From NCBI RefSeq assembly GCF_001677475.2, contig NZ_CP015229.1: a stretch of 64,000 bases of DNA; one strand, 5' to 3'. The DNA comes from Escherichia coli (GTDB lineage Bacteria > Pseudomonadota > Gammaproteobacteria > Enterobacterales > Enterobacteriaceae). Position 1 is the stretch's first letter. Every line of letters begins with the position of its first letter. Made by a program: the position numbers and the translations under genes. The notes under the pieces are model-generated. The model was not told the DNA's origin. It did no database searches and saw only the letters and a program-made list of their open reading frames with translations. Positions 3,064-57,214 of this stretch are shown here, piece after piece.

Positions 3064-3204
3064 ATTCACTACCTGTTATGAGATTGCAGTAAATGACTGC
3101 TTGCTGGCGGCTATTTTGTCAGCACTGAATACAGGACTTCGTGAATCGAGTCACAGCAATGGAAACGGTTACAGCCGTTTTGTTAACGAATGTGATCCAG
3201 ATCG

Positions 3205-4362
3205 TTATCTTGATGTTTTAGATATTGCCGGTCCGGCAGCACGCAAAGTTAACTGACGCCAGAGCCATTCCACCGGCCCCTGGCGGAAGTAACGCAGCCA
3301 GATAACAGAGAAGAGGATATTCGCCAGCCATACCGGAATAACAAACGCCAGCAGCTCCAGGCGGTCAAAATGCATAAACAAACCGAGGTGGTAAAAAAGC
3401 GTGGTACAAATCAGCGTTTGCAATAGATAGTTGGTCAGCGCCATCCGTCCGACGCAGGCGATCGCAAGCACCAGCTTAAAGCGGCTCAATTGCGGCCAGA
3501 AGCCATAAAACAGCGACGCATAGCCAATCGCCTGAAACGGCGCACTCAGTTCCCGCGGCATTTGAAGTAAGAAGGCACACCAGCGATACGCCCAGTCCAG
3601 CTGCCATTGCAGGGCGATGGCAGGAAGGTTAATGATCACCCCAATCGCCACCAGCACAAAACCAGTACGACGATAGTGACGTAAGCTGAACTGCCCTTTC
3701 AGCCAGCCGCTGCGCATCAGCGCCGCACCAATGAGCATCATCCCTGCCAGTTGCCAGCCATACTGTGCGCCCAGTGCCAGTAAACTGTTCCCAACACCAT
3801 CGGCACGATTACTGATCGCTTCAACACCACCATGAAGTTTCCAGTATTTTTCATACAAAATAGTCGACGCATCAGGCGTCCAGGCACGGCTGGTCTGGCT
3901 GTCGGAAATCAGCCCCAATAACAGCAAAACGCCAAGCCCCACCAGATAAAGCATGACGCCGGTATTAAACAGGCTTTTTACCGATGGCGCATCGCGCACC
4001 AGCCGCCAGCAGATTAAGCCCACCAGCCCGTAAGCCAGCAGAATATCGCCGTCCCAGAACAATAAACCGTGAATAAAGCCCAGCAAGACTAACAGCGTTA
4101 ACCGCGACTGGATCCAGCGTCTGCCACGGGGCAGCAACATTTGCAGGCCCGCACCAAACAGCAGCGCAAAAAGCGTGAGGAATTTCACCTGGCCGATGAG
4201 ATCGAGAAATGCCCAGGTCCATGCATCCTGTGGCGTAATAGCGCCATACCAGGCGGGATTAAGATAAGCCGCCTTTGGTAGCCCAAAGGCGCTGATGTTT
4301 AATAGCAGGATCCCCAGAATGGCGACGCCGCGAACAAAATCGAGCGTGACGTTGCGCTCCAT
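3205..4362 (-). CDS. yeiB: Inner-membrane protein (DUF418 family)
   Basis: 385-aa hydrophobic multi-TM ORF; conserved position between galS and folE. Confidence 0.8.
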   Translation of the reverse strand: MERNVTLDFVRGVAILGILLLNISAFGLPKAAYLNPAWYGAITPQDAWTWAFLDLIGQVKFLTLFALLFGAGLQMLLPRGRRWIQSRLTLLVLLGFIHGLLFWDGDILLAYGLVGLICWRLVRDAPSVKSLFNTGVMLYLVGLGVLLLLGLISDSQTSRAWTPDASTILYEKYWKLHGGVEAISNRADGVGNSLLALGAQYGWQLAGMMLIGAALMRSGWLKGQFSLRHYRRTGFVLVAIGVIINLPAIALQWQLDWAYRWCAFLLQMPRELSAPFQAIGYASLFYGFWPQLSRFKLVLAIACVGRMALTNYLLQTLICTTLFYHLGLFMHFDRLELLAFVIPVWLANILFSVIWLRYFRQGPVEWLWRQLTLRAAGPAISKTSR

Positions 4363-47539: not shown

Positions 47540-47616
47540 CGGCACGTAGCGCAGCCTGGTAGCGCACCGTCATGGGGTGTCGGGGGTCGGAGGTTCAAAT
47601 CCTCTCGTGCCGACCA
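47540..47616 (+). tRNA. proL: tRNA-Pro (anticodon GGG)
   Basis: CGGCACGTAGCGCAGCCTGGTAGCGCACCGTCATGGGGTGTCGGGGGTCGGAGGTTCAAATCCTCTCGTGCCGACCA; cloverleaf with GGG anticodon; encoded CCA absent. Confidence 0.9.
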
Positions 47617-47618
47617 AA
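47602..47618 (+). repeat. attL core (3' end of tRNA-Pro)
   Basis: CTCTCGTGCCGACCAAA, identical to the copy at 58597-58613. Confidence 0.8.
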
Positions 47619-47790: not shown

Positions 47791-47824
47791 AAAACCCTGT
47801 TTTTTCGTGTGGAATCATAGACAT

Positions 47825-49066
47825 ATGGCGAGAAAAACACCCCCATTAACCACAGTGCAGATCAAAGCAGCCAGACCAGCGCAAAAGGAGTACACCCTAC
47901 AGGACGGCGGTGGGCTTTTTCTCCTGGTAAAACCGTCCGGATCAAAACTCTGGCGATTTTCCTACTACCGACCATCGGACAAAAAAAGAATATTGCTGAG
48001 TTTTGGATCGCTTGAAGATGTTTCCCTGGCTGATGCCAGAAAACGCCGTAGCGAGTACAGGACGTTAATCAGTGCCGGAACTGACCCGCAGGACCATGAG
48101 AAGAAAAAACGAGAGGCAGAGGCCCGAAGACAAGGGAACACGTTCGAAAATGTGGCGGCGGCATGGTACCAGGTGAAAATCAGCCAGAATCTGGCCCCCA
48201 ACACGATTAAAGACATCTGGCGTTCGCTGGATAAATATGTATTCCCGTTCATCGGCAACACGCCAATAGATACCCTCACCGCTCGCCGCTTTGTTGAGAT
48301 ACTCACACCCATTAAAGCACGCGGCAACCTGGAAACTCTGAAACGCGTTTTACAACGCATCAATGAAGTGATGGATTTTGCTGCCAACAGTGGGCTGATT
48401 GACATCAACACCGCCGCGAACGTCCGCAAGGCATTCCCTTCCCCCACTAAAAAGCATATGCCAACCATCCGACCGGAACAGCTACCGCAGCTAATGCACG
48501 ATTTATCGGTCGCCAGCATAGAACGGCAAACCAGATTGCTAATCGAGTGGCAACTGCTGACCGTAGCACGCCCAGCCGAAGCAGCCGCCGCACGCTGGGA
48601 AGAAATAGATCTCGATGCCGAAACATGGACGATTCCAGCCGGACGCATGAAGATGCGCCGTGACCATGTGATCCCTCTTTGCGGTCAGGCGATAGCTGTA
48701 CTGGAAACAATGAAGCCAATCAGCGCACACAGGGAACATGTTTTTCCCAGCCTTAAAAATCCAATGCTGCCAATGAGCAGCCAGACCGCTAACGCTGCAT
48801 TGCGCCGGATGGGATACGCTGGTGTGCTGGTGTCTCACGGATTACGCGCCATATTCAGTACAGCAGCGAACGAGGAAGGATTCGAGCCGGACGTAATCGA
48901 GGCCGCACTCGCACACGTGGACACGAACGAGGTAAGGCGAGCATATAACCGAAGTAACTACCTGGAAAAGCGCGTGGTGCTTATGCGCTGGTGGGGGGAA
49001 TTTGTAGAGGCCGCAGCTACCGGAGTGACCATAGCCAGTGGTAAAAGGGGTATCCGTGCCGTGTAA
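47825..49066 (+). CDS. int: Tyrosine recombinase / integrase, P4-like (N-terminal DUF4102-type arm-binding domain)
   Basis: MARKTPPLTTVQIKAARPAQKEYTLQDGGGLFLLVKPSGSKLWRFSYY... with C-terminal catalytic region (HGLRA...RAYNRSNY); adjacent to tRNA. The GTG at 47807 is an alternative start. Confidence 0.85.
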   Translation: MARKTPPLTTVQIKAARPAQKEYTLQDGGGLFLLVKPSGSKLWRFSYYRPSDKKRILLSFGSLEDVSLADARKRRSEYRTLISAGTDPQDHEKKKREAEARRQGNTFENVAAAWYQVKISQNLAPNTIKDIWRSLDKYVFPFIGNTPIDTLTARRFVEILTPIKARGNLETLKRVLQRINEVMDFAANSGLIDINTAANVRKAFPSPTKKHMPTIRPEQLPQLMHDLSVASIERQTRLLIEWQLLTVARPAEAAAARWEEIDLDAETWTIPAGRMKMRRDHVIPLCGQAIAVLETMKPISAHREHVFPSLKNPMLPMSSQTANAALRRMGYAGVLVSHGLRAIFSTAANEEGFEPDVIEAALAHVDTNEVRRAYNRSNYLEKRVVLMRWWGEFVEAAATGVTIASGKRGIRAV

Positions 49067-51113: not shown

Positions 51114-51413
51114 ATGAAAAAGAAAAATTCTGGCTTTACTGCCAGTGGTCTCCCTCGGCCTGAAATCCGCCCCGGCGATATTTTCCGGGATAACTACGGC
51201 GGCACGGTAACGATTAAAAGTATTGCCGGACGGTGCGTTACTTACCGCCGTGATGGGTACAGCTACGACTGCGTGATGCCTGTTTATCAGTTCCGGCGTG
51301 ATTTTTCACTGATACAGGCCACACCACGCAAACAGCCCACCAGCAACGCAAAGGCACGGGCAAATATTCAGAAAATGAAAAACATGATTAACGCATTCAG
51401 GGGCACAAAATGA
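51114..51413 (+). CDS. Hypothetical protein (99 aa)
   Basis: GGAG SD; stop overlaps the pri start (ATGA). Confidence 0.45.
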   Translation: MKKKNSGFTASGLPRPEIRPGDIFRDNYGGTVTIKSIAGRCVTYRRDGYSYDCVMPVYQFRRDFSLIQATPRKQPTSNAKARANIQKMKNMINAFRGTK

Positions 51414-53215
51414 AACTGGCACCGAACTTAAAAAAACAGCCACACGACAAAATGACCGAAGTCATTATTTTTGCAGGTAGTGATGCCTGGGCGCACGCGA
51501 AACAGTGGCAGGAACAGGACGGGCGACTTGCTGGCGACAACGTGCCACCTGTATGGCTGGGAGACAGCCAGCTTGACGAACTGGCAGACCTGAAAATTAT
51601 CGACGATGGTCGCTATTGTGTCCGGCTGTACAAGGCAGGCCACATCAAGCCGTCAAATATTAATGCCATCGGGCAAAAGCTGGCGGCGGCAGGTGTACGG
51701 GATGCGAGATATTACCCTGAGGGAATGCACAGCCAGAAGCGGGAGGAGTGGCGCGAATATCTGGAGCGTGCGCGCCAGAATCTTTCTGATGGTCTGGTTA
51801 TTCAGCTTCCTGTTAAGAAAAAAACAGAAGACAGCGCCGCACCACTGGCGCTTAACCAGATGGGAGCAAGCCAGCGCGGCGAAGTTCTCCTGGCACGTTA
51901 TGGCGGCGAACTGGCAATTAATGCGGACTCTGACACCGTTCACCACTACAACGGCGTTGTATGGGAGCCGGTACAGGATAAAGAGTTACAGCGGGCTATG
52001 GCACAGATTTTTATTGATGCGGAGATCAGTTATTCGCAGAACGCCATCAAATCGGCGGTCGATACCATGAAGTTAAGTTTGCCCGTAATGGGGAATACCG
52101 CCCGTAACCTGATTGGATTCAGTAACGGTGTTTTTGATACCCGGACAGGCGATTTTCGGGAGCATGACAAAAACGACTGGCTGTTAATTGCCAGTGAATT
52201 ACCGTTCAGCCCGCCAGCAGAGGGGGAAACGCTGGCAACGCATGCGCCGAATTTCTGGAAATGGTTGCGCCGTTCGGTGGCAGAGAATGGCCGTAAAGCG
52301 GATCGCGTACTGGCGGCGTTATTCATGGTGCTGGCGAACCGATACGACTGGCAGTTATTTCTTGAGGTAACGGGGCCGGGTGGAAGCGGTAAAAGCGTAA
52401 TGGCGGAGATTTGCACCATGCTGGCGGGTAAGGCCAACACGGTATCGGCAAGCATGAAGGCGCTGGAAGATGCCAGGGAACGCGCGTTAGTGGTTGGCTT
52501 TTCGCTGATTATCATGCCGGATATGACCCGCTACGCTGGTGATGGTGCAGGTATTAAGGCCATTACAGGCGGTGACAAAGTGGCAATCGACCCGAAACAT
52601 AAAGCTCCCTACTCAACACGCATTCAGGCGGTCGTGCTGGCGGTGAACAATAACGCCATGTCATTCAGTGACCGCAGTGGGGGGATCTCACGTCGTCGGG
52701 TGATATTCAATTTTTCGGAGGTTGTACCGGAGAACGAACGCGACCCCATGCTGGCAGAAAAAATAGAAGGAGAGCTGGCGGTTGTGATTCGCCACCTGCT
52801 TACTCGTTTTTCTGACCAGGACAAAGCTAAACGCCTGCTGTATGAGCAGCAGAAATCAGAAGAAGCTCTGGTGATAAAACGCGAGGGCGATTCGCTGGTG
52901 GACTTCTGCGGCTATCTCATGTCGTCGGTAATGTGTGATGGTCTGTTAGTGGGTAATGCCGAAATTATTCCGTTCAGTCCGCGCAGATATCTTTATCACG
53001 CCTATCTGGCATATATGAGGGCACACGGATTCGGTAAACCTGTAACACTGACGCGCTTCGGTAAAGATATGCCGGGGGCAATGGCGGAATATGGCAGGGA
53101 GTATATGAAACGGAAAACGAAGCACGGTTTGCGTTCAAATGTGACCCTGACAGAGGATTCAGAAGACTGGATGCCATCATGTACATCGGTCACAAATGAC
53201 GATGGAAAAAATTAA
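51410..53215 (+). CDS. Replication protein: primase C-terminal-like / SF3-type helicase P-loop NTPase (satellite Pri-Rep)
   Basis: 601-aa ORF with Walker A TGPGGSGKS and a hydrophobic stretch ending in D (Walker B-like, VVGFSLIIMPD); immediately followed by an iteron-rich origin. Confidence 0.75.
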   Translation: MKLAPNLKKQPHDKMTEVIIFAGSDAWAHAKQWQEQDGRLAGDNVPPVWLGDSQLDELADLKIIDDGRYCVRLYKAGHIKPSNINAIGQKLAAAGVRDARYYPEGMHSQKREEWREYLERARQNLSDGLVIQLPVKKKTEDSAAPLALNQMGASQRGEVLLARYGGELAINADSDTVHHYNGVVWEPVQDKELQRAMAQIFIDAEISYSQNAIKSAVDTMKLSLPVMGNTARNLIGFSNGVFDTRTGDFREHDKNDWLLIASELPFSPPAEGETLATHAPNFWKWLRRSVAENGRKADRVLAALFMVLANRYDWQLFLEVTGPGGSGKSVMAEICTMLAGKANTVSASMKALEDARERALVVGFSLIIMPDMTRYAGDGAGIKAITGGDKVAIDPKHKAPYSTRIQAVVLAVNNNAMSFSDRSGGISRRRVIFNFSEVVPENERDPMLAEKIEGELAVVIRHLLTRFSDQDKAKRLLYEQQKSEEALVIKREGDSLVDFCGYLMSSVMCDGLLVGNAEIIPFSPRRYLYHAYLAYMRAHGFGKPVTLTRFGKDMPGAMAEYGREYMKRKTKHGLRSNVTLTEDSEDWMPSCTSVTNDDGKN

Positions 53216-53502: not shown

Positions 53503-53748
53503 GTGACAACGAAGCACGCAAAAAAACCACAATCACACGCCCTTGATTTGACAGAACACTGGCTGAGGGTGGCGATAAAAATCATCGACCGCAACGCGGG
53601 AGAAGGATACGCGAAAGCGCATCCCGAACTGATAAGCGCATTCATGACCACGGCGGCGGCAAATTTTGCCACACTGACAGAACGGGAGATTGCCGAAGCG
53701 GAACAGGTGACAACCATCAACGTTAAAACCGGAGAGCAGACAGCATGA
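53503..53748 (+). CDS. Hypothetical protein (81 aa)
   Basis: GTG start with GAGGT SD; overlaps the start of the next ORF. Confidence 0.4.
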   Translation: MTTKHAKKPQSHALDLTEHWLRVAIKIIDRNAGEGYAKAHPELISAFMTTAAANFATLTEREIAEAEQVTTINVKTGEQTA

Positions 53749-54044
53749 CAGCACAGATAGCGGCTTGCGGGCGGCTGGTGGCTGACCCGCAGTTAAAGAC
53801 CACCAGCAAAGGGACACAAATGGCGATGGCGAGTATGGCGGTTCCCCTGCCGTGCAGCCAGGCAGATGACGGAACGGCGACGATGTGGTTATCTGTCCTG
53901 GCGTTTGGCAGACAGGCCGACGCACTGGCAAAACACCACAAAGGCGAACTCCTGAGCGTGGCGGGTAACATGCAGGTGAGCCAGTGGACAGGCCAGAACG
54001 GCGCGACCGGGCGGCAAAAAAGGTCAACAGGGCCAGGCCACTGA
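53745..54044 (+). CDS. SSB-like OB-fold single-stranded DNA-binding protein (short form)
   Basis: IAACGRLVADPQLKTT...WLSVLAFGRQADALAKHHKGELLSVAGNMQVSQWTGQNG follows the SSB OB-fold pattern (GxL..DPEL... W..V.xFG ... KG..V.V.G.L....W). Confidence 0.55.
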   Translation: MTAQIAACGRLVADPQLKTTSKGTQMAMASMAVPLPCSQADDGTATMWLSVLAFGRQADALAKHHKGELLSVAGNMQVSQWTGQNGATGRQKRSTGPGH

Positions 54045-54322
54045 CGCACTGAACAGGGCAAAACAACAGTCAGGGAATGATGAACCGTACGGCGATAATA
54101 TACCGTTTTAAATTCTGCAAACAAAAAGATGCCGGAAAAAAATAGATTTTCCGGCATGCTACATAAATCCCGACCAAAGGAAGTAAATACATTAACACGA
54201 ATTATCAGCACTGAAGTTGTCACGGCATATTTTATACAACATTGCACTTGGTTGCATGTATTCGCATAGCAGACATCGGTAATAGAATATATTCACAATT
54301 ATTTGTAATGAATGTAAAGAGG

Positions 54323-55369
54323 ATGAGTATGGTTGATTTATATTCGCCTACACAGCTTGTGCAGGTGGCTAATGCTGAAGATGTGCAAAAAAAATTAAAT
54401 GCGTTGTTTACCAGTTTGTTTTTCACTCGCTCGGTAATGTTTGAATCGAGAGACATTATTCTTGATACGATCGACGATCCAAATATCCCGATCGCGGCGT
54501 TTTGCTCTCCTATGGTGGGCAGTAAAGTTTCACGAGATGAGGGATACGAATCAAAAACAATTCGCCCTGGCTATATGAAACCGAAAAGCAGTATTGATCC
54601 AAATAAGTTAGCTGTGCGCCCTGCTGGTGTATCACCTGAGCAATACAATGCTTTTGGGGCGCGTAATATTAAAGTTAAACAGGCGATTGTAAATCAGGCT
54701 AAAGCTATTCGTGCACGTATTGAATGGCTTGCTGTTCAGGCAATCACAACGGGGAAAAATATCATTGAGGGCGATGGTATTGAACGTTATGAGCTGGACT
54801 GGAATATAAAACCACAAAATATCATCACTCAGTCTGGCGGTACTGAGTGGTCAGGTAAGGATAAAGAAACTTTTGATCCAAATGATGATATTGAGAGCTA
54901 CGCAGAATTTAGTGAGGGCGTCACTAATATCATCATTATGGGTGGTAATGTATGGAAGAAATACCGTTCATTCAGAGCGATAAAAGAGGCTTTGGATACC
55001 CGTCGTGGTTCTAATTCCGAACTGGAAACGGCCCTTAAAGACCTTGGTGATTCGGTGAGTTTTAAAGGGTATATGGGCGATGTTGCGATTGTTGTTTACA
55101 GCGGGCGTTATACCGACGAGGACGGAACAGAAAAACATTTCCTTGATCCTGATTTGATGGTGCTTGGCAATACGGCTCTTCAGGGGATTGTCGCCTATGG
55201 CGGTATTCAGGATCCGGAGCTAATCCGAATGGGGCTGACTAAAGCCGAACTTGCACCGAAAAACTATATTGTGCCTGGTGATCCGGCTATTGAATATGTG
55301 CAGACACATTCAGCACCACAGCCAATACCGGCCCGCATCAATCGTTTTGTTACCGTTCGCATTGGCTAA
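54323..55369 (+). CDS. Major capsid protein, lambda gpE family
   Basis: MSMVDLYSPTQL... with NITQSGGTEWSGKDKETFDPNDDIESYA, DTRRGSNSELETALKDLGDSVSFKG and GDVAIVVYSG, matching lambda E as recalled from memory (start may be the ATG at 54329). Confidence 0.8.
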   Translation: MSMVDLYSPTQLVQVANAEDVQKKLNALFTSLFFTRSVMFESRDIILDTIDDPNIPIAAFCSPMVGSKVSRDEGYESKTIRPGYMKPKSSIDPNKLAVRPAGVSPEQYNAFGARNIKVKQAIVNQAKAIRARIEWLAVQAITTGKNIIEGDGIERYELDWNIKPQNIITQSGGTEWSGKDKETFDPNDDIESYAEFSEGVTNIIIMGGNVWKKYRSFRAIKEALDTRRGSNSELETALKDLGDSVSFKGYMGDVAIVVYSGRYTDEDGTEKHFLDPDLMVLGNTALQGIVAYGGIQDPELIRMGLTKAELAPKNYIVPGDPAIEYVQTHSAPQPIPARINRFVTVRIG

Positions 55370-55378
55370 GGGGGAGCA

Positions 55379-55720
55379 ATGGCTACTCATTACACTGAAC
55401 TCATGTCTGGCACTGAAGCACTGGTTACTACGCTGGGGATATTTTCAGCCAATAAAGGGGTAATACCTGCGTTTACGCCACTGATGCAGGAAGATGCAAC
55501 TGGTGCGCTAGTGGTATGGGATGGAACGAGCGCAGGCAAAGCGGTTTATGTTTCCGCTGTACAAATCGACACAGCGAAAAAAACACAGGCACAGGTTTAT
55601 AAGACAGGTGTTTTAAATGTTGATGCTCTGAACTGGCCTGAGTCTGTAAAAGAACTGTCGGCAAAGGTTGCCGCGTTTGTTGGCTCAGGTATTTCTGTTC
55701 AGCCGCTGGCTCGTGTGTAA
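55379..55720 (+). CDS. Head decoration protein, lambda gpD family
   Basis: 113 aa; TPLMQEDATGALVVWDGTSAGKAV...YKTGVLNVDALNWPE...AAFVGSGISV parallels lambda D as recalled from memory. Confidence 0.75.
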   Translation: MATHYTELMSGTEALVTTLGIFSANKGVIPAFTPLMQEDATGALVVWDGTSAGKAVYVSAVQIDTAKKTQAQVYKTGVLNVDALNWPESVKELSAKVAAFVGSGISVQPLARV

Positions 55721-55731
55721 AGGGGGATACA

Positions 55732-56115
55732 ATGCAGAATCATTACAATGACCTTAAGCCAATTGCCGAAATGATGTATCCGGATCCAGCAGTAGAGGAA
55801 TTAAAGGCTATTGCTGACAAAATGCGTTTAAGTGAACGCCTTGTTGATATGAATCAGGTGATGGAACTTACTACCCTTAGCCGTCGCACATTGCTAAACC
55901 TTGAGGCTCGCGGAGAGTTCCCCGAACGCGTACAGGTTACGGAAGGGCGTAAGGCCTGGTATTTAAGTGAAGTGATCGACTGGATAAACAATATTCCTCG
56001 AGCTTCTGAATATTGCCGCGTACCTGTCCCAAAAAAGCCAGATGCGGCGCTATGCCTCAAGATTGAGCGTGTACGTCGCAATGCACGGGATGGTCGCTAT
56101 AAGTTGATTGGTTGA
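55732..56115 (+). CDS. AlpA/HTH_17-family DNA-binding protein with N-terminal extension
   Basis: LVDMNQVMELTTLSRRTLLNLEARGEFPERVQVTEGRKAWYLSEVIDWINN matches the AlpA-type HTH pattern; lies directly upstream of cos. Confidence 0.55.
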   Translation: MQNHYNDLKPIAEMMYPDPAVEELKAIADKMRLSERLVDMNQVMELTTLSRRTLLNLEARGEFPERVQVTEGRKAWYLSEVIDWINNIPRASEYCRVPVPKKPDAALCLKIERVRRNARDGRYKLIG

Positions 56116-56140: not shown

Positions 56141-56215
56141 CGGGTCCTTTCCGGCGATCCGGTAGGCTACGGGGCGGCGACCTTGCGGATTTTCGCTATT
56201 TATGAGCCTTTTCGG
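56141..56215 (+). other. Lambda-type cos site (cosQ-cosN plus conserved flank)
   Basis: CGGGTCCTTTCCGGCGATCCGGTAGGCTACG|GGGCGGCGACCT|TGCGGATTTTCGCTATTTATGA; the 12-nt GGGCGGCGACCT (56172-56183) equals the lambda cohesive end as recalled from memory. Confidence 0.75.
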
Positions 56216-56316
56216 GTTGGTGGTGGTGGTTTTGTTTTTCGCTCTATCTCTATGAATAAAAAGGGAAAGATAACACCAACACACCAACCTGAAACCTTAA
56301 CTAAGTGGGGATATTG

Positions 56317-56859
56317 ATGAAATCGCACCTGATGAACAAAAAAACTATGGCGCAAAGCTGCCGCGTAAGTGCGACAGCGTTCGACAAGTGGGGAGTAACT
56401 CCCGTTGAGCGTAAAGGCCGTGAGGCGTTTTATGATGTTGCCAGCGTGATAGACAATAGGGTTAACAATGCAATTAACCAGCTTACAAACGACAAAGGCG
56501 AGATTGATGATGATGAACTTTTACGCGTAAGAATCAGATTAATGACGGCCCAGGCGGAAGCGCAGGAACTTAAAAACGAGCGCGAACGCGGCGAGGTGAT
56601 TGATACAAAGTTTTGCATCTACGCGATTTCAAAACTGGCGAGTCAGATTTCATCAATCATGGACAGCCTCCCGCTCACAATGCAAAGGCGCTTTCCCGAT
56701 ATAAGGCCGTATATGCTGGATGAACTAAAAAGGGAAATAGCCAAAGCATGTAACGCATGTGCAAGACTTGACGAAAACCTGCCACAGATACTGGCTGATT
56801 ACCTGATGGAAACTACCGGAAGCGCGCCTGAGAAGTTGCTACAGAACAAAGGCGAGTAA
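56317..56859 (+). CDS. Terminase small subunit, lambda Nu1 family (no large subunit gene follows)
   Basis: RLMTAQAEAQELKNERERGEVIDTKFCIYAISKLASQISSIMDSLPLTMQRRFPD and C-terminal LKREIAKACNACARLDENLPQILADYL match lambda Nu1 as recalled from memory; gene sits about 135 bp downstream of cosN. Confidence 0.75.
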   Translation: MKSHLMNKKTMAQSCRVSATAFDKWGVTPVERKGREAFYDVASVIDNRVNNAINQLTNDKGEIDDDELLRVRIRLMTAQAEAQELKNERERGEVIDTKFCIYAISKLASQISSIMDSLPLTMQRRFPDIRPYMLDELKREIAKACNACARLDENLPQILADYLMETTGSAPEKLLQNKGE

Positions 56860-56932
56860 CCGCCGCCCCGTAACGGGCCATAATTCCAGGAGGGACCCGA
56901 CGACACCAGGCTATCAGAGCGATGGGGGCACA

Positions 56933-57214
56933 ATGACAGAAGCCGAAATACTGCGATTAATCCGCCGCGTTACCGGAATCAGCCAGCAGGCTGACGAACA
57001 GGCCACGCAGCCGGACAGCGTGACCGCTGAAAATTATGTGCGTGTTGTTGCTGAGGTGATGCGCCGTGATGGTATTGAGCTTAACGGCGTGGATATGCGC
57101 AACATACGAACAAGAGTCCTTGAGTTGCTGGCATACCGTCGCCGGATACAGACGTACAGGGAAAAAGCCAAAATAACGTACCAGTGGAAGAAGCCGGAGC
57201 GGTTACGGCGGTAA
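56933..57214 (+). CDS. Hypothetical protein (93 aa)
   Basis: ATG ORF downstream of terS-like gene; Arg-rich C-terminus; no recognised motif. Confidence 0.4.
   Translation: MTEAEILRLIRRVTGISQQADEQATQPDSVTAENYVRVVAEVMRRDGIELNGVDMRNIRTRVLELLAYRRRIQTYREKAKITYQWKKPERLRR

Follow-up and report, generated by a model that had tools for sequence, protein, structure and literature searches.

The 64-kb window analyzed here (a stretch of 64,000 nucleotides from Escherichia coli, contig NZ_CP015229.1) carries a lambda-type cohesive-end site (cos), which is followed by a gene for a Nu1-family small terminase subunit (TerS) and by a gene for a protein of 93 aa. All three belong to an 11.0-kb island, which is bounded by a 17-bp direct repeat and is located at a tRNA-Pro gene. 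Judged by its sequence, the locus is the packaging module of a canonical Gram-negative phage-inducible chromosomal island (PICI). In islands of the Rpp type, such as EcCICFT073, the corresponding slot next to cos codes for an Rpp, a protein of 139–154 aa with a winged helix-turn-helix (HTH) and dimerization helices, which has no region for binding the large terminase subunit (TerL) (PMC9026076). The features of the module are:

56142–56148, + strand: cosQ, GGGTCCT, 7/7 identical to lambda, at the lambda spacing of 30 bp upstream of cosN, and invariant in all aligned relatives.
56172–56183, + strand: cosN, GGGCGGCGACCT, 12/12 identical to lambda.
56184–56205, + strand: conserved segment on the cosB side, TGCGGATTTTCGCTATTTATGA, nearly unchanged from lambda and also present in Rpp-type islands; the cassette breakpoint described below is just past this segment.
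56210–56232, + strand: element at the R3 position, proposed TerS binding site, TTTCGGGTTGGTGGTGGTGGTTT, bp 39–61 from the cosN start; its left arm runs into (GGT)n.
56281–56294, − strand: element at the R2 position, ACACCAACCTGAAA, the inverted partner of the R3-position element.
56317–56859, + strand: terS, coding for a Nu1-family small terminase (180 aa) with an N15-type winged HTH domain whose altered helix reads SATAFDKW, a central coiled region that is conserved, and a C-terminal region that aligned to the TerL-binding domain of lambda.
56933–57214, + strand: gene for a 93-aa protein without assigned function, homologous to c1504 from EcCICFT073 (84% identity; PHROG 1561).

For the comparison with lambda, the two ends of the lambda record were joined and the junction was compared to the window without gaps, the register being anchored on cosN. 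The sequence GGGCGGCGACCT occurs as a single copy in the window. Between positions −35 and +36, 60 of 71 nucleotides are identical, so that the close match to lambda cos, which had been proposed in a preliminary description of this DNA, holds upon alignment. The flanks that had been quoted are indeed close to lambda except that one base was off: the window reads GGCTACG rather than GGTTACG. The sequence TTTTCGCTATTTATGA (56190–56205) lies within the core that matches lambda. Outside of this core, identity to lambda falls to 26%–33% (160 bp on the left side, 210 bp on the right), which is background level. With cosQ and cosN showing the lambda sequence and the lambda spacing, the site is a lambda-type cos. 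The parts which are used by the large terminase (cosQ, cosN, and the 22-bp flank) are thus kept by the island, and it is the binding region of the small terminase which has been replaced. A variant cosN in an otherwise conserved cos context, GGGCGTCAGGCG, is found in the island from strain 26a (L006, at about 3070–3085).

On the cosB side of the window, alignment to lambda revealed none of the lambda R3, R2, and R1 sequences, and the island does not have the lambda layout R3-I1-R2-R1 with the lambda R consensus (I1 being the site for integration host factor, IHF). The region contains an inverted repeat with arms of 13 nt (56210–56222 and 56282–56294), which are 92% complementary and have 59 nt between them. 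The R3-position element overlaps the positions of R3 from lambda (bp 50–65) and from N15 (bp 48–60) (PMC9026076), and the right arm is found where lambda has its oppositely oriented R2. A third cosB element is not present beside the inverted pair. The R2-position arm is kept in the E. coli relatives and corresponds to CACCCACC in Superficieibacter (L013) and to CACCCACT in Kosakonia (L012). Within the window, ACACCAAC is tandemly duplicated at 56273–56288; relatives keep only the second copy, which is inside the right arm. The preliminary description had correctly reported the divergence past the core and the ACACCAAC repeats, but it is the inverted pair, not the tandem, that is the conserved element. 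It had also called the cosB island-specific. This applies in that the cosB is distinct from that of lambda; it is, however, not unique to this island but a derivative of an N15-type R3 in which GGTGGTGG replaces GGTTGTTG.

The likely start codon of terS is the ATG at 56317, 134 bp past the end of cosN, which results in the 180-aa protein that is also annotated in relatives by RefSeq. The protein matches PHROG 57 (6e-53) and Pfam PF07471 Phage_Nu1 (2e-22). It shows 37% sequence identity to lambda Nu1 over 178 aa, the two being homologous end to end, and is thus a member of the Nu1 family over its full length, as had been suspected initially for the gene that follows cosN. The closest phage TerS is gp1 from N15 (47.6% identity). 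This likeness peaks in the N-terminal domain (30–31 of 55 residues), which has the same short wing and the same FDKWG motif. The central oligomerization region is the most phage-like part of the protein (30–34 of 69 residues identical), with the motif RLTxAQAxAQELKN common to both. In a structural model generated by AlphaFold2 (AF2; pLDDT 74), residues 5–56 adopt the order strand-helix-helix-strand-strand-helix, which is expected for a winged HTH. Foldseek searches with the full-length model returned only long-helix or coiled-coil-like matches (E above 0.5), and a phmmer search of the PDB with TerS returned nothing relevant and did not reach the Nu1 domain.

Between E. coli islands, omega is 0.10–0.27 for terS and 0.03–0.24 for its DNA-binding domain, values by which terS is under purifying selection. 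The gene is a mosaic: several pairs (window vs. L004–L007) have a synonymous divergence of about 1.0 for the C-terminal third but of 0.13–0.2 for the N-terminal domain, a contrast indicating recombination within terS. In the Superficieibacter island (L013), a lambda/N15-like C-terminal half is combined with a satellite-type N-terminal domain. Such mosaicism would be expected if the DNA-binding half were kept by the satellite while the TerL-binding half tracked the local helpers.

Of 5426 complete E. coli genomes, 755 have the arrangement cos-terS-93 aa at a coverage of at least 80%. When one genome per species was scanned, 40 loci encoding an N15-type-like TerS were obtained. In 37 of these, the end of terS is adjoined or overlapped by a gene for a gpA-like TerL, which holds for every related phage locus with a gpA-like gene (37/37). 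Two of the 40 loci, from Kosakonia and Superficieibacter, show the satellite layout with no TerL. Contigs from Enterobacteriaceae also have the satellite layout without TerL, and their TerS proteins form a cluster (named Enterobacter/Citrobacter in the sources) with 56% identity to the TerS from the window. One terS-carrying island (L052, NZ_CM187527.1, 3806000–3846000) is found in a helper-embedded PICI configuration, and the same right junction is seen in L009–L011; this configuration has already been published (PMC10111431).

Across these relatives, the type of recognition helix correlates with the element at the R3 position. All eight satellite TerS proteins have the sequence S-C-R/K-V-S/G-A/V-T-A-F-D-K-W-G and are preceded by GGTGGTGG, with GGTTGTTG in none of them. 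All 38 TerL-linked phage TerS proteins have ...Q-A-F-D-K-W-G, and GGTTGTTG is found at the R3 position in 36 of the 38. The eight satellite relatives with GGTGGTGG represent at least four genera; among the 38 phage relatives, GGTGGTGG is found in a single one (L044), which also carries GGTTGTTG. Where it is visible, the inverted partner changes in step, being AACAACC in prophages from E. albertii and Escherichia sp. (L014, L015) and CACCAACC or CACCCACC in satellites. N15 shares with the island a G/T-rich triplet element at the same distance from cosN, and its cosB has a single R3 (at the positions given above). It differs from the island in that gp1 is followed by the phage's own TerL, in the helix (SVQAFDKW with R3 GGTTGTTGTT compared to SATAFDKW with GGTGGTGGTGG in the island), and in cosN, which is GGGCGGCGTCCG in N15. 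The weight of this pairing would lie in the fact that both halves have been kept across genera, with protein identity at 55%.

The relation to Rpp-type islands is illustrated by strain RM12761, which has a TerS-type island at the same phoQ site where EcCICFT073 is integrated. The two islands are 94% identical over a stretch that begins with the gene preceding the capsid gene and ends at cosN+34. Across cosB and terS/rppA, they are 45% identical, that is, unrelated. From the inverted second cos (cos2) on, they are again highly similar, with 89% identity for the 93-aa gene. Because identity collapses only there, cosB and the DNA-recognition gene represent one exchangeable cassette between two inverted cos cores. 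The right arm of EcCICFT073 has the same organization, with genes for capsid (c1499), decoration protein (c1500), and a 137-aa open reading frame (ORF), followed by cos1, the 144-aa RppA, and the 93-aa c1504. Like the window island, EcCICFT073 combines a lambda-type cosQ and cosN with a cosB that is unlike that of lambda and directly precedes the DNA-recognition gene; it differs in that this slot holds the 144-aa Rpp and not a full-length Nu1 homolog with a C-terminal domain. The polarity at the R3 position is opposite, with (GGT)n in the window island (56216–56232) and CACCACCACCAC, its reverse complement, at bp 54–65 of cos1 from EcCICFT073 (L003, 2610–2623), at nearly the same distance from cosN. 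According to a later account (PMC10111431, citing PMC6092414), EcCICFT073 is packaged as phage-length concatemers, and its gpE and gpD homologs are described as dispensable for transfer (PMC6092414).

TerS being in the exact slot of rppA, whose product acts by binding the helper TerS (PMC6739421), it might be argued that the island TerS behaves like an Rpp, forming mixed oligomers with the helper TerS and thereby poisoning helper packaging and retargeting it to the island cosB, so that helper TerS would still be required. The likeness of the central oligomerization region to that of phage TerS, including the shared motif, would fit such a mode of action. However, in contrast to Rpp, the island TerS has the full C-terminal region that aligned to the TerL-binding domain of lambda, and this protein is under purifying selection. 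In addition, neither BLASTP nor hhalign detected any similarity between TerS and RppA. We thus consider mixed oligomers unlikely. The related idea that TerS is simply a long Rpp was rejected for the same lack of similarity and because of its length of 180 aa with a C-terminal region that aligned to that of lambda Nu1.

The window has a remnant of cos2, which was recognized upon alignment to RM12761, IHE3034, and EcCICFT073, where the inverted cos2 is complete:

56857–56898, − strand: inverted cos2 remnant with the cosQ-like GGGTCCC, TTACG, and then GGGCGGCG plus GTTA, which equals the terS stop codon; the cosB side has been lost.

The remnant is directly after the terS stop codon and is broken off within cosN, about 185 bp including the cosB side having been deleted. 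A second complete cos was looked for in the window, and only this truncated cos2 was found. In the complete cos2 of the relatives, the cosB side begins like that of lambda (GAAAATTTTCCGG). The inverted cos2 of strain F374 (L007, at about 3860–3960) has a variant cosN, GGGCGGGAGCAT, in an otherwise conserved cos context.

These sequences bear on the possibility that the complete terminase of the helper packages the island via the shared cos core, with the island TerS mainly interfering by titrating TerL. The near identity of cosQ, cosN, and the 22-bp flank to the helper type would be in line with this, as would the lambda-like start of the cosB side in the inverted second cos of the relatives. 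Lambda TerS, however, requires R3 and R2 (PMC9026076), and the island has neither these nor R1, its cos2 being cut off within cosN. Cognate recognition is also favored by the conserved pairing of helix and R3 motif and by the fact that cosB and terS are inherited together. Packaging by the complete helper terminase is therefore improbable in our view.

A large terminase is not encoded beside terS, which corroborates the preliminary description: a tblastn search with gpA revealed no homolog anywhere in the window (best E = 1.5). The window thus lacks the cognate TerL that would be expected immediately downstream for a member of the Nu1 family. The gene that follows terS codes for 93 aa and, as had been stated, is not a gpA homolog, since BLASTP detected no similarity. 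This and the absence of an NCBIfam hit also led us to reject the 93-aa gene as an N-terminal fragment or decoy of gpA. Its omega is 0.14–0.40, and its AF2 model is poor (pLDDT 54). The EcCICFT073 homolog c1504 is among the genes that do not inhibit lambda when expressed alone (PMC6739421).

The remaining features of the island are:

47540–47616, + strand: tRNA-Pro (GGG), the integration target (ARAGORN).
47602–47618, + strand: left attachment site, attL, with the 17-bp direct repeat CTCTCGTGCCGACCAAA at the tRNA 3′ end, the longest exact repeat shared with the right flank.
47807–49066, + strand: tyrosine integrase (PHROG 1, 1.9e-71; NCBIfam NF007246, 1.8e-164).
51410–53215, + strand: primase-replicase, 601 aa (PHROG 864 DNA primase, 4e-190).
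54329–55369, + strand: homolog of the gpE-like major capsid protein, 346 aa (PHROG 29, 4e-91); the mechanical ORF start is at 54242.
55379–55720, + strand: homolog of the gpD-like head decoration protein (PHROG 49, 1e-26), 54% identical to c1500 from EcCICFT073.
55732–56115, + strand: AlpA-family HTH protein, 127 aa, directly upstream of cos (PF05930, 2e-8; PHROG 2790, 1.8e-48).
58597–58613, + strand: attR, the right copy of CTCTCGTGCCGACCAAA.

The capsid protein has lambda gpE as its best phage match (42% identity over the full length) and is 54% identical to c1499 from EcCICFT073. The integrase gene is followed by small regulatory ORFs; the small integrase-proximal ORFs gave no family hit, and the AlpA-family gene is outside its usual integrase-proximal position. 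With all ORFs of the island accounted for, none codes for TerL, a portal protein, a protease, or a tail protein. The assignment as a PICI is based on the integrase at one end, the flanking attachment repeats at a site of its own, the AlpA/MerR-type regulator and the primase-replicase, the capsid gene together with terS, a size in the range of about 10–15 kb, and the absence of TerL, portal, tail, and lysis genes. SatelliteFinder uses the same five-component layout for PICIs (PMC10085698). A capsid-forming PICI (cf-PICI) was considered and rejected because only homologs of capsid, decoration protein, and TerS are encoded, with no TerL, portal, protease, or head-tail connectors of its own. The homolog of the single-stranded DNA-binding protein (SSB; 53745–54044) has 99 aa compared to about 140 aa (423 nt) in relatives, and the gene is probably truncated or frameshifted in the window copy. 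Close to its right end, the island has a short tandem repeat with a 12-nt unit (at about 58130–58240, upstream of attR), which is visible as QPAS ×4 and LAGW ×4 in the ORF translations of the two strands.

The shortened SSB, the missing TerL, and the cos2 remnant could be taken to mean that cos and terS are the left end of a decaying prophage, with no present function. This is hard to reconcile with the canonical satellite architecture, the intact attachment sites, and omega values well below 1. Moreover, the 755 E. coli genomes keep the same gene order, as do other genera. The fact that terS abuts or overlaps TerL in all 37 phage loci with a gpA-like gene points to the arrangement in the window as a distinct, maintained lineage. 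A decaying prophage is thus very improbable.

Two TerS-encoding E. coli PICIs, EcCIIHE3034 and EcCI18098, have been listed by Fillol-Salom et al. in 2018 (PMC6092414). EcCIIHE3034 has the same gene order (int ... primase, SSB, gpE-like, gpD-like, small ORF, cos, terS of 180 aa, 93 aa), its TerS is 86% identical, and cosQ, cosN, and cosB are the same. The window island is integrated at tRNA-Pro between yejM and narP, whereas EcCIIHE3034 and EcCI18098 are found at cspD-clpS. The ORF upstream of cos is the 127-aa AlpA-family protein in the window island but a 137-aa hypothetical protein in these two, and cos2 is complete in IHE3034 but truncated in the window island. The available text of PMC6092414 has no description of cos or cosB from either island. 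In the pac-type staphylococcal islands (SaPI), a satellite-encoded TerS also picks the satellite DNA and uses the TerL of the helper (as summarized in PMC6739421). SaPI packaging differs in being headful (pac), in its unrelated TerS family, and in the need for Ppi to block the phage TerS; an equivalent of Ppi was not identified in the window island.

Taken together, we consider it likely from the sequence comparisons that the TerS encoded by the island itself reads the island cosB and works with the large terminase of a helper, and that this is the packaging module of the 11-kb PICI. The redirection of packaging through island cosB and TerS with helper TerL, as initially suggested, is supported by the PICI architecture without TerL, the cosB-terS cassette, the co-variation of helix and R3, and purifying selection. 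Upon induction by a lambda-like helper, the island would be excised and replicated. The island TerS would bind the island cosB through its winged HTH, at the (GGT)n element and, where present, its inverted partner, and its C-terminal domain would recruit the gpA-like TerL of the helper. TerL would then nick the island cosN (56172–56183) and package island concatemers. Four island units correspond to 44 kb and would fill a lambda-size head, this length fitting the packaging size of lambda. The helper cos sites, which have different R3 sequences, would not be recognized by the island TerS. Rpp uses the helper TerS as a bridge to TerL (PMC6739421, PMC9026076); unlike Rpp-type islands, TerS-type islands should not need this bridge.

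Several observations weigh against this interpretation. In the only published test, mitomycin C was used to induce the resident prophages, and the TerS-encoding islands of strains IHE3034 and 18098 did not transfer (PMC6092414). The satellite and phage groups are probably two clades, and the pairing of helix and site may reflect one ancestral switch that was then kept and not repeated covariation. The R2-position arm is missing from the Enterobacteriaceae contigs L009–L011, and no IHF consensus is found between the cosB arms at up to two mismatches, in a scan that does find I1 of lambda. The C-terminal domain is 17–18/40 identical to any phage TerS compared; since the values are alike for the TerS from lambda, from phage 21-like elements, and from Escherichia prophages, the attempt to name the helper from the TerS C-terminus failed to discriminate. 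Finally, the cosN of the 26a island (GGGCGTCAGGCG) differs from the lambda cosN of the prophage that hosts this island, and this case gave no support to the idea that a variant cosN matches the resident helper.

The preliminary description had implied a higher novelty than is warranted: a catalogue of 2018 already contains E. coli PICIs that encode TerS (PMC6092414), and PMC10085698 counts TerS, with its role of redirecting packaging, among the core components of PICIs. The type of element, the occurrence of terS in certain E. coli PICIs, and the general notion that packaging is redirected by a satellite TerS are thus already published (PMC6092414, PMC10085698, PMC6739421). In the literature searched, we found no description of the cos of TerS-type islands, of the N15-type origin of the TerS domain and cosB, of the pairing of helix and site, or of the allelic exchange with rppA, and no experimental work on a Nu1-type TerS in cos PICIs.

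PICIs spread virulence and defense genes, and the capture of the helper packaging motor decides which phages move them. For cos-type islands from E. coli, Rpp is the only route that has been worked out, and it needs the helper TerS; the TerS type is found in about one-seventh of the complete E. coli genomes. We see an about even chance, judging from the comparisons made here, that Nu1-type TerS islands represent a second route of cos-packaging hijack, which would be independent of helper TerS and cassette-exchangeable with Rpp, and whose specificity would come from a minor change to a pair of the N15 type, with T for Q where the recognition helix begins and GGTGGTGG for GGTTGTTG in R3. In that case, these islands would offer a natural test of whether the helper TerS in Rpp hijacking only delivers TerL, and of where Rpp came from. 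The comparisons yield a defined candidate binding site, a candidate two-residue and two-base specificity switch, and a natural cassette swap between two strategies. The switch and the cassette bear on the Murialdo-Feiss proposal about the contribution of TerS to cos recognition, and would make two questions left open by PMC6739421 and PMC9026076 directly testable.

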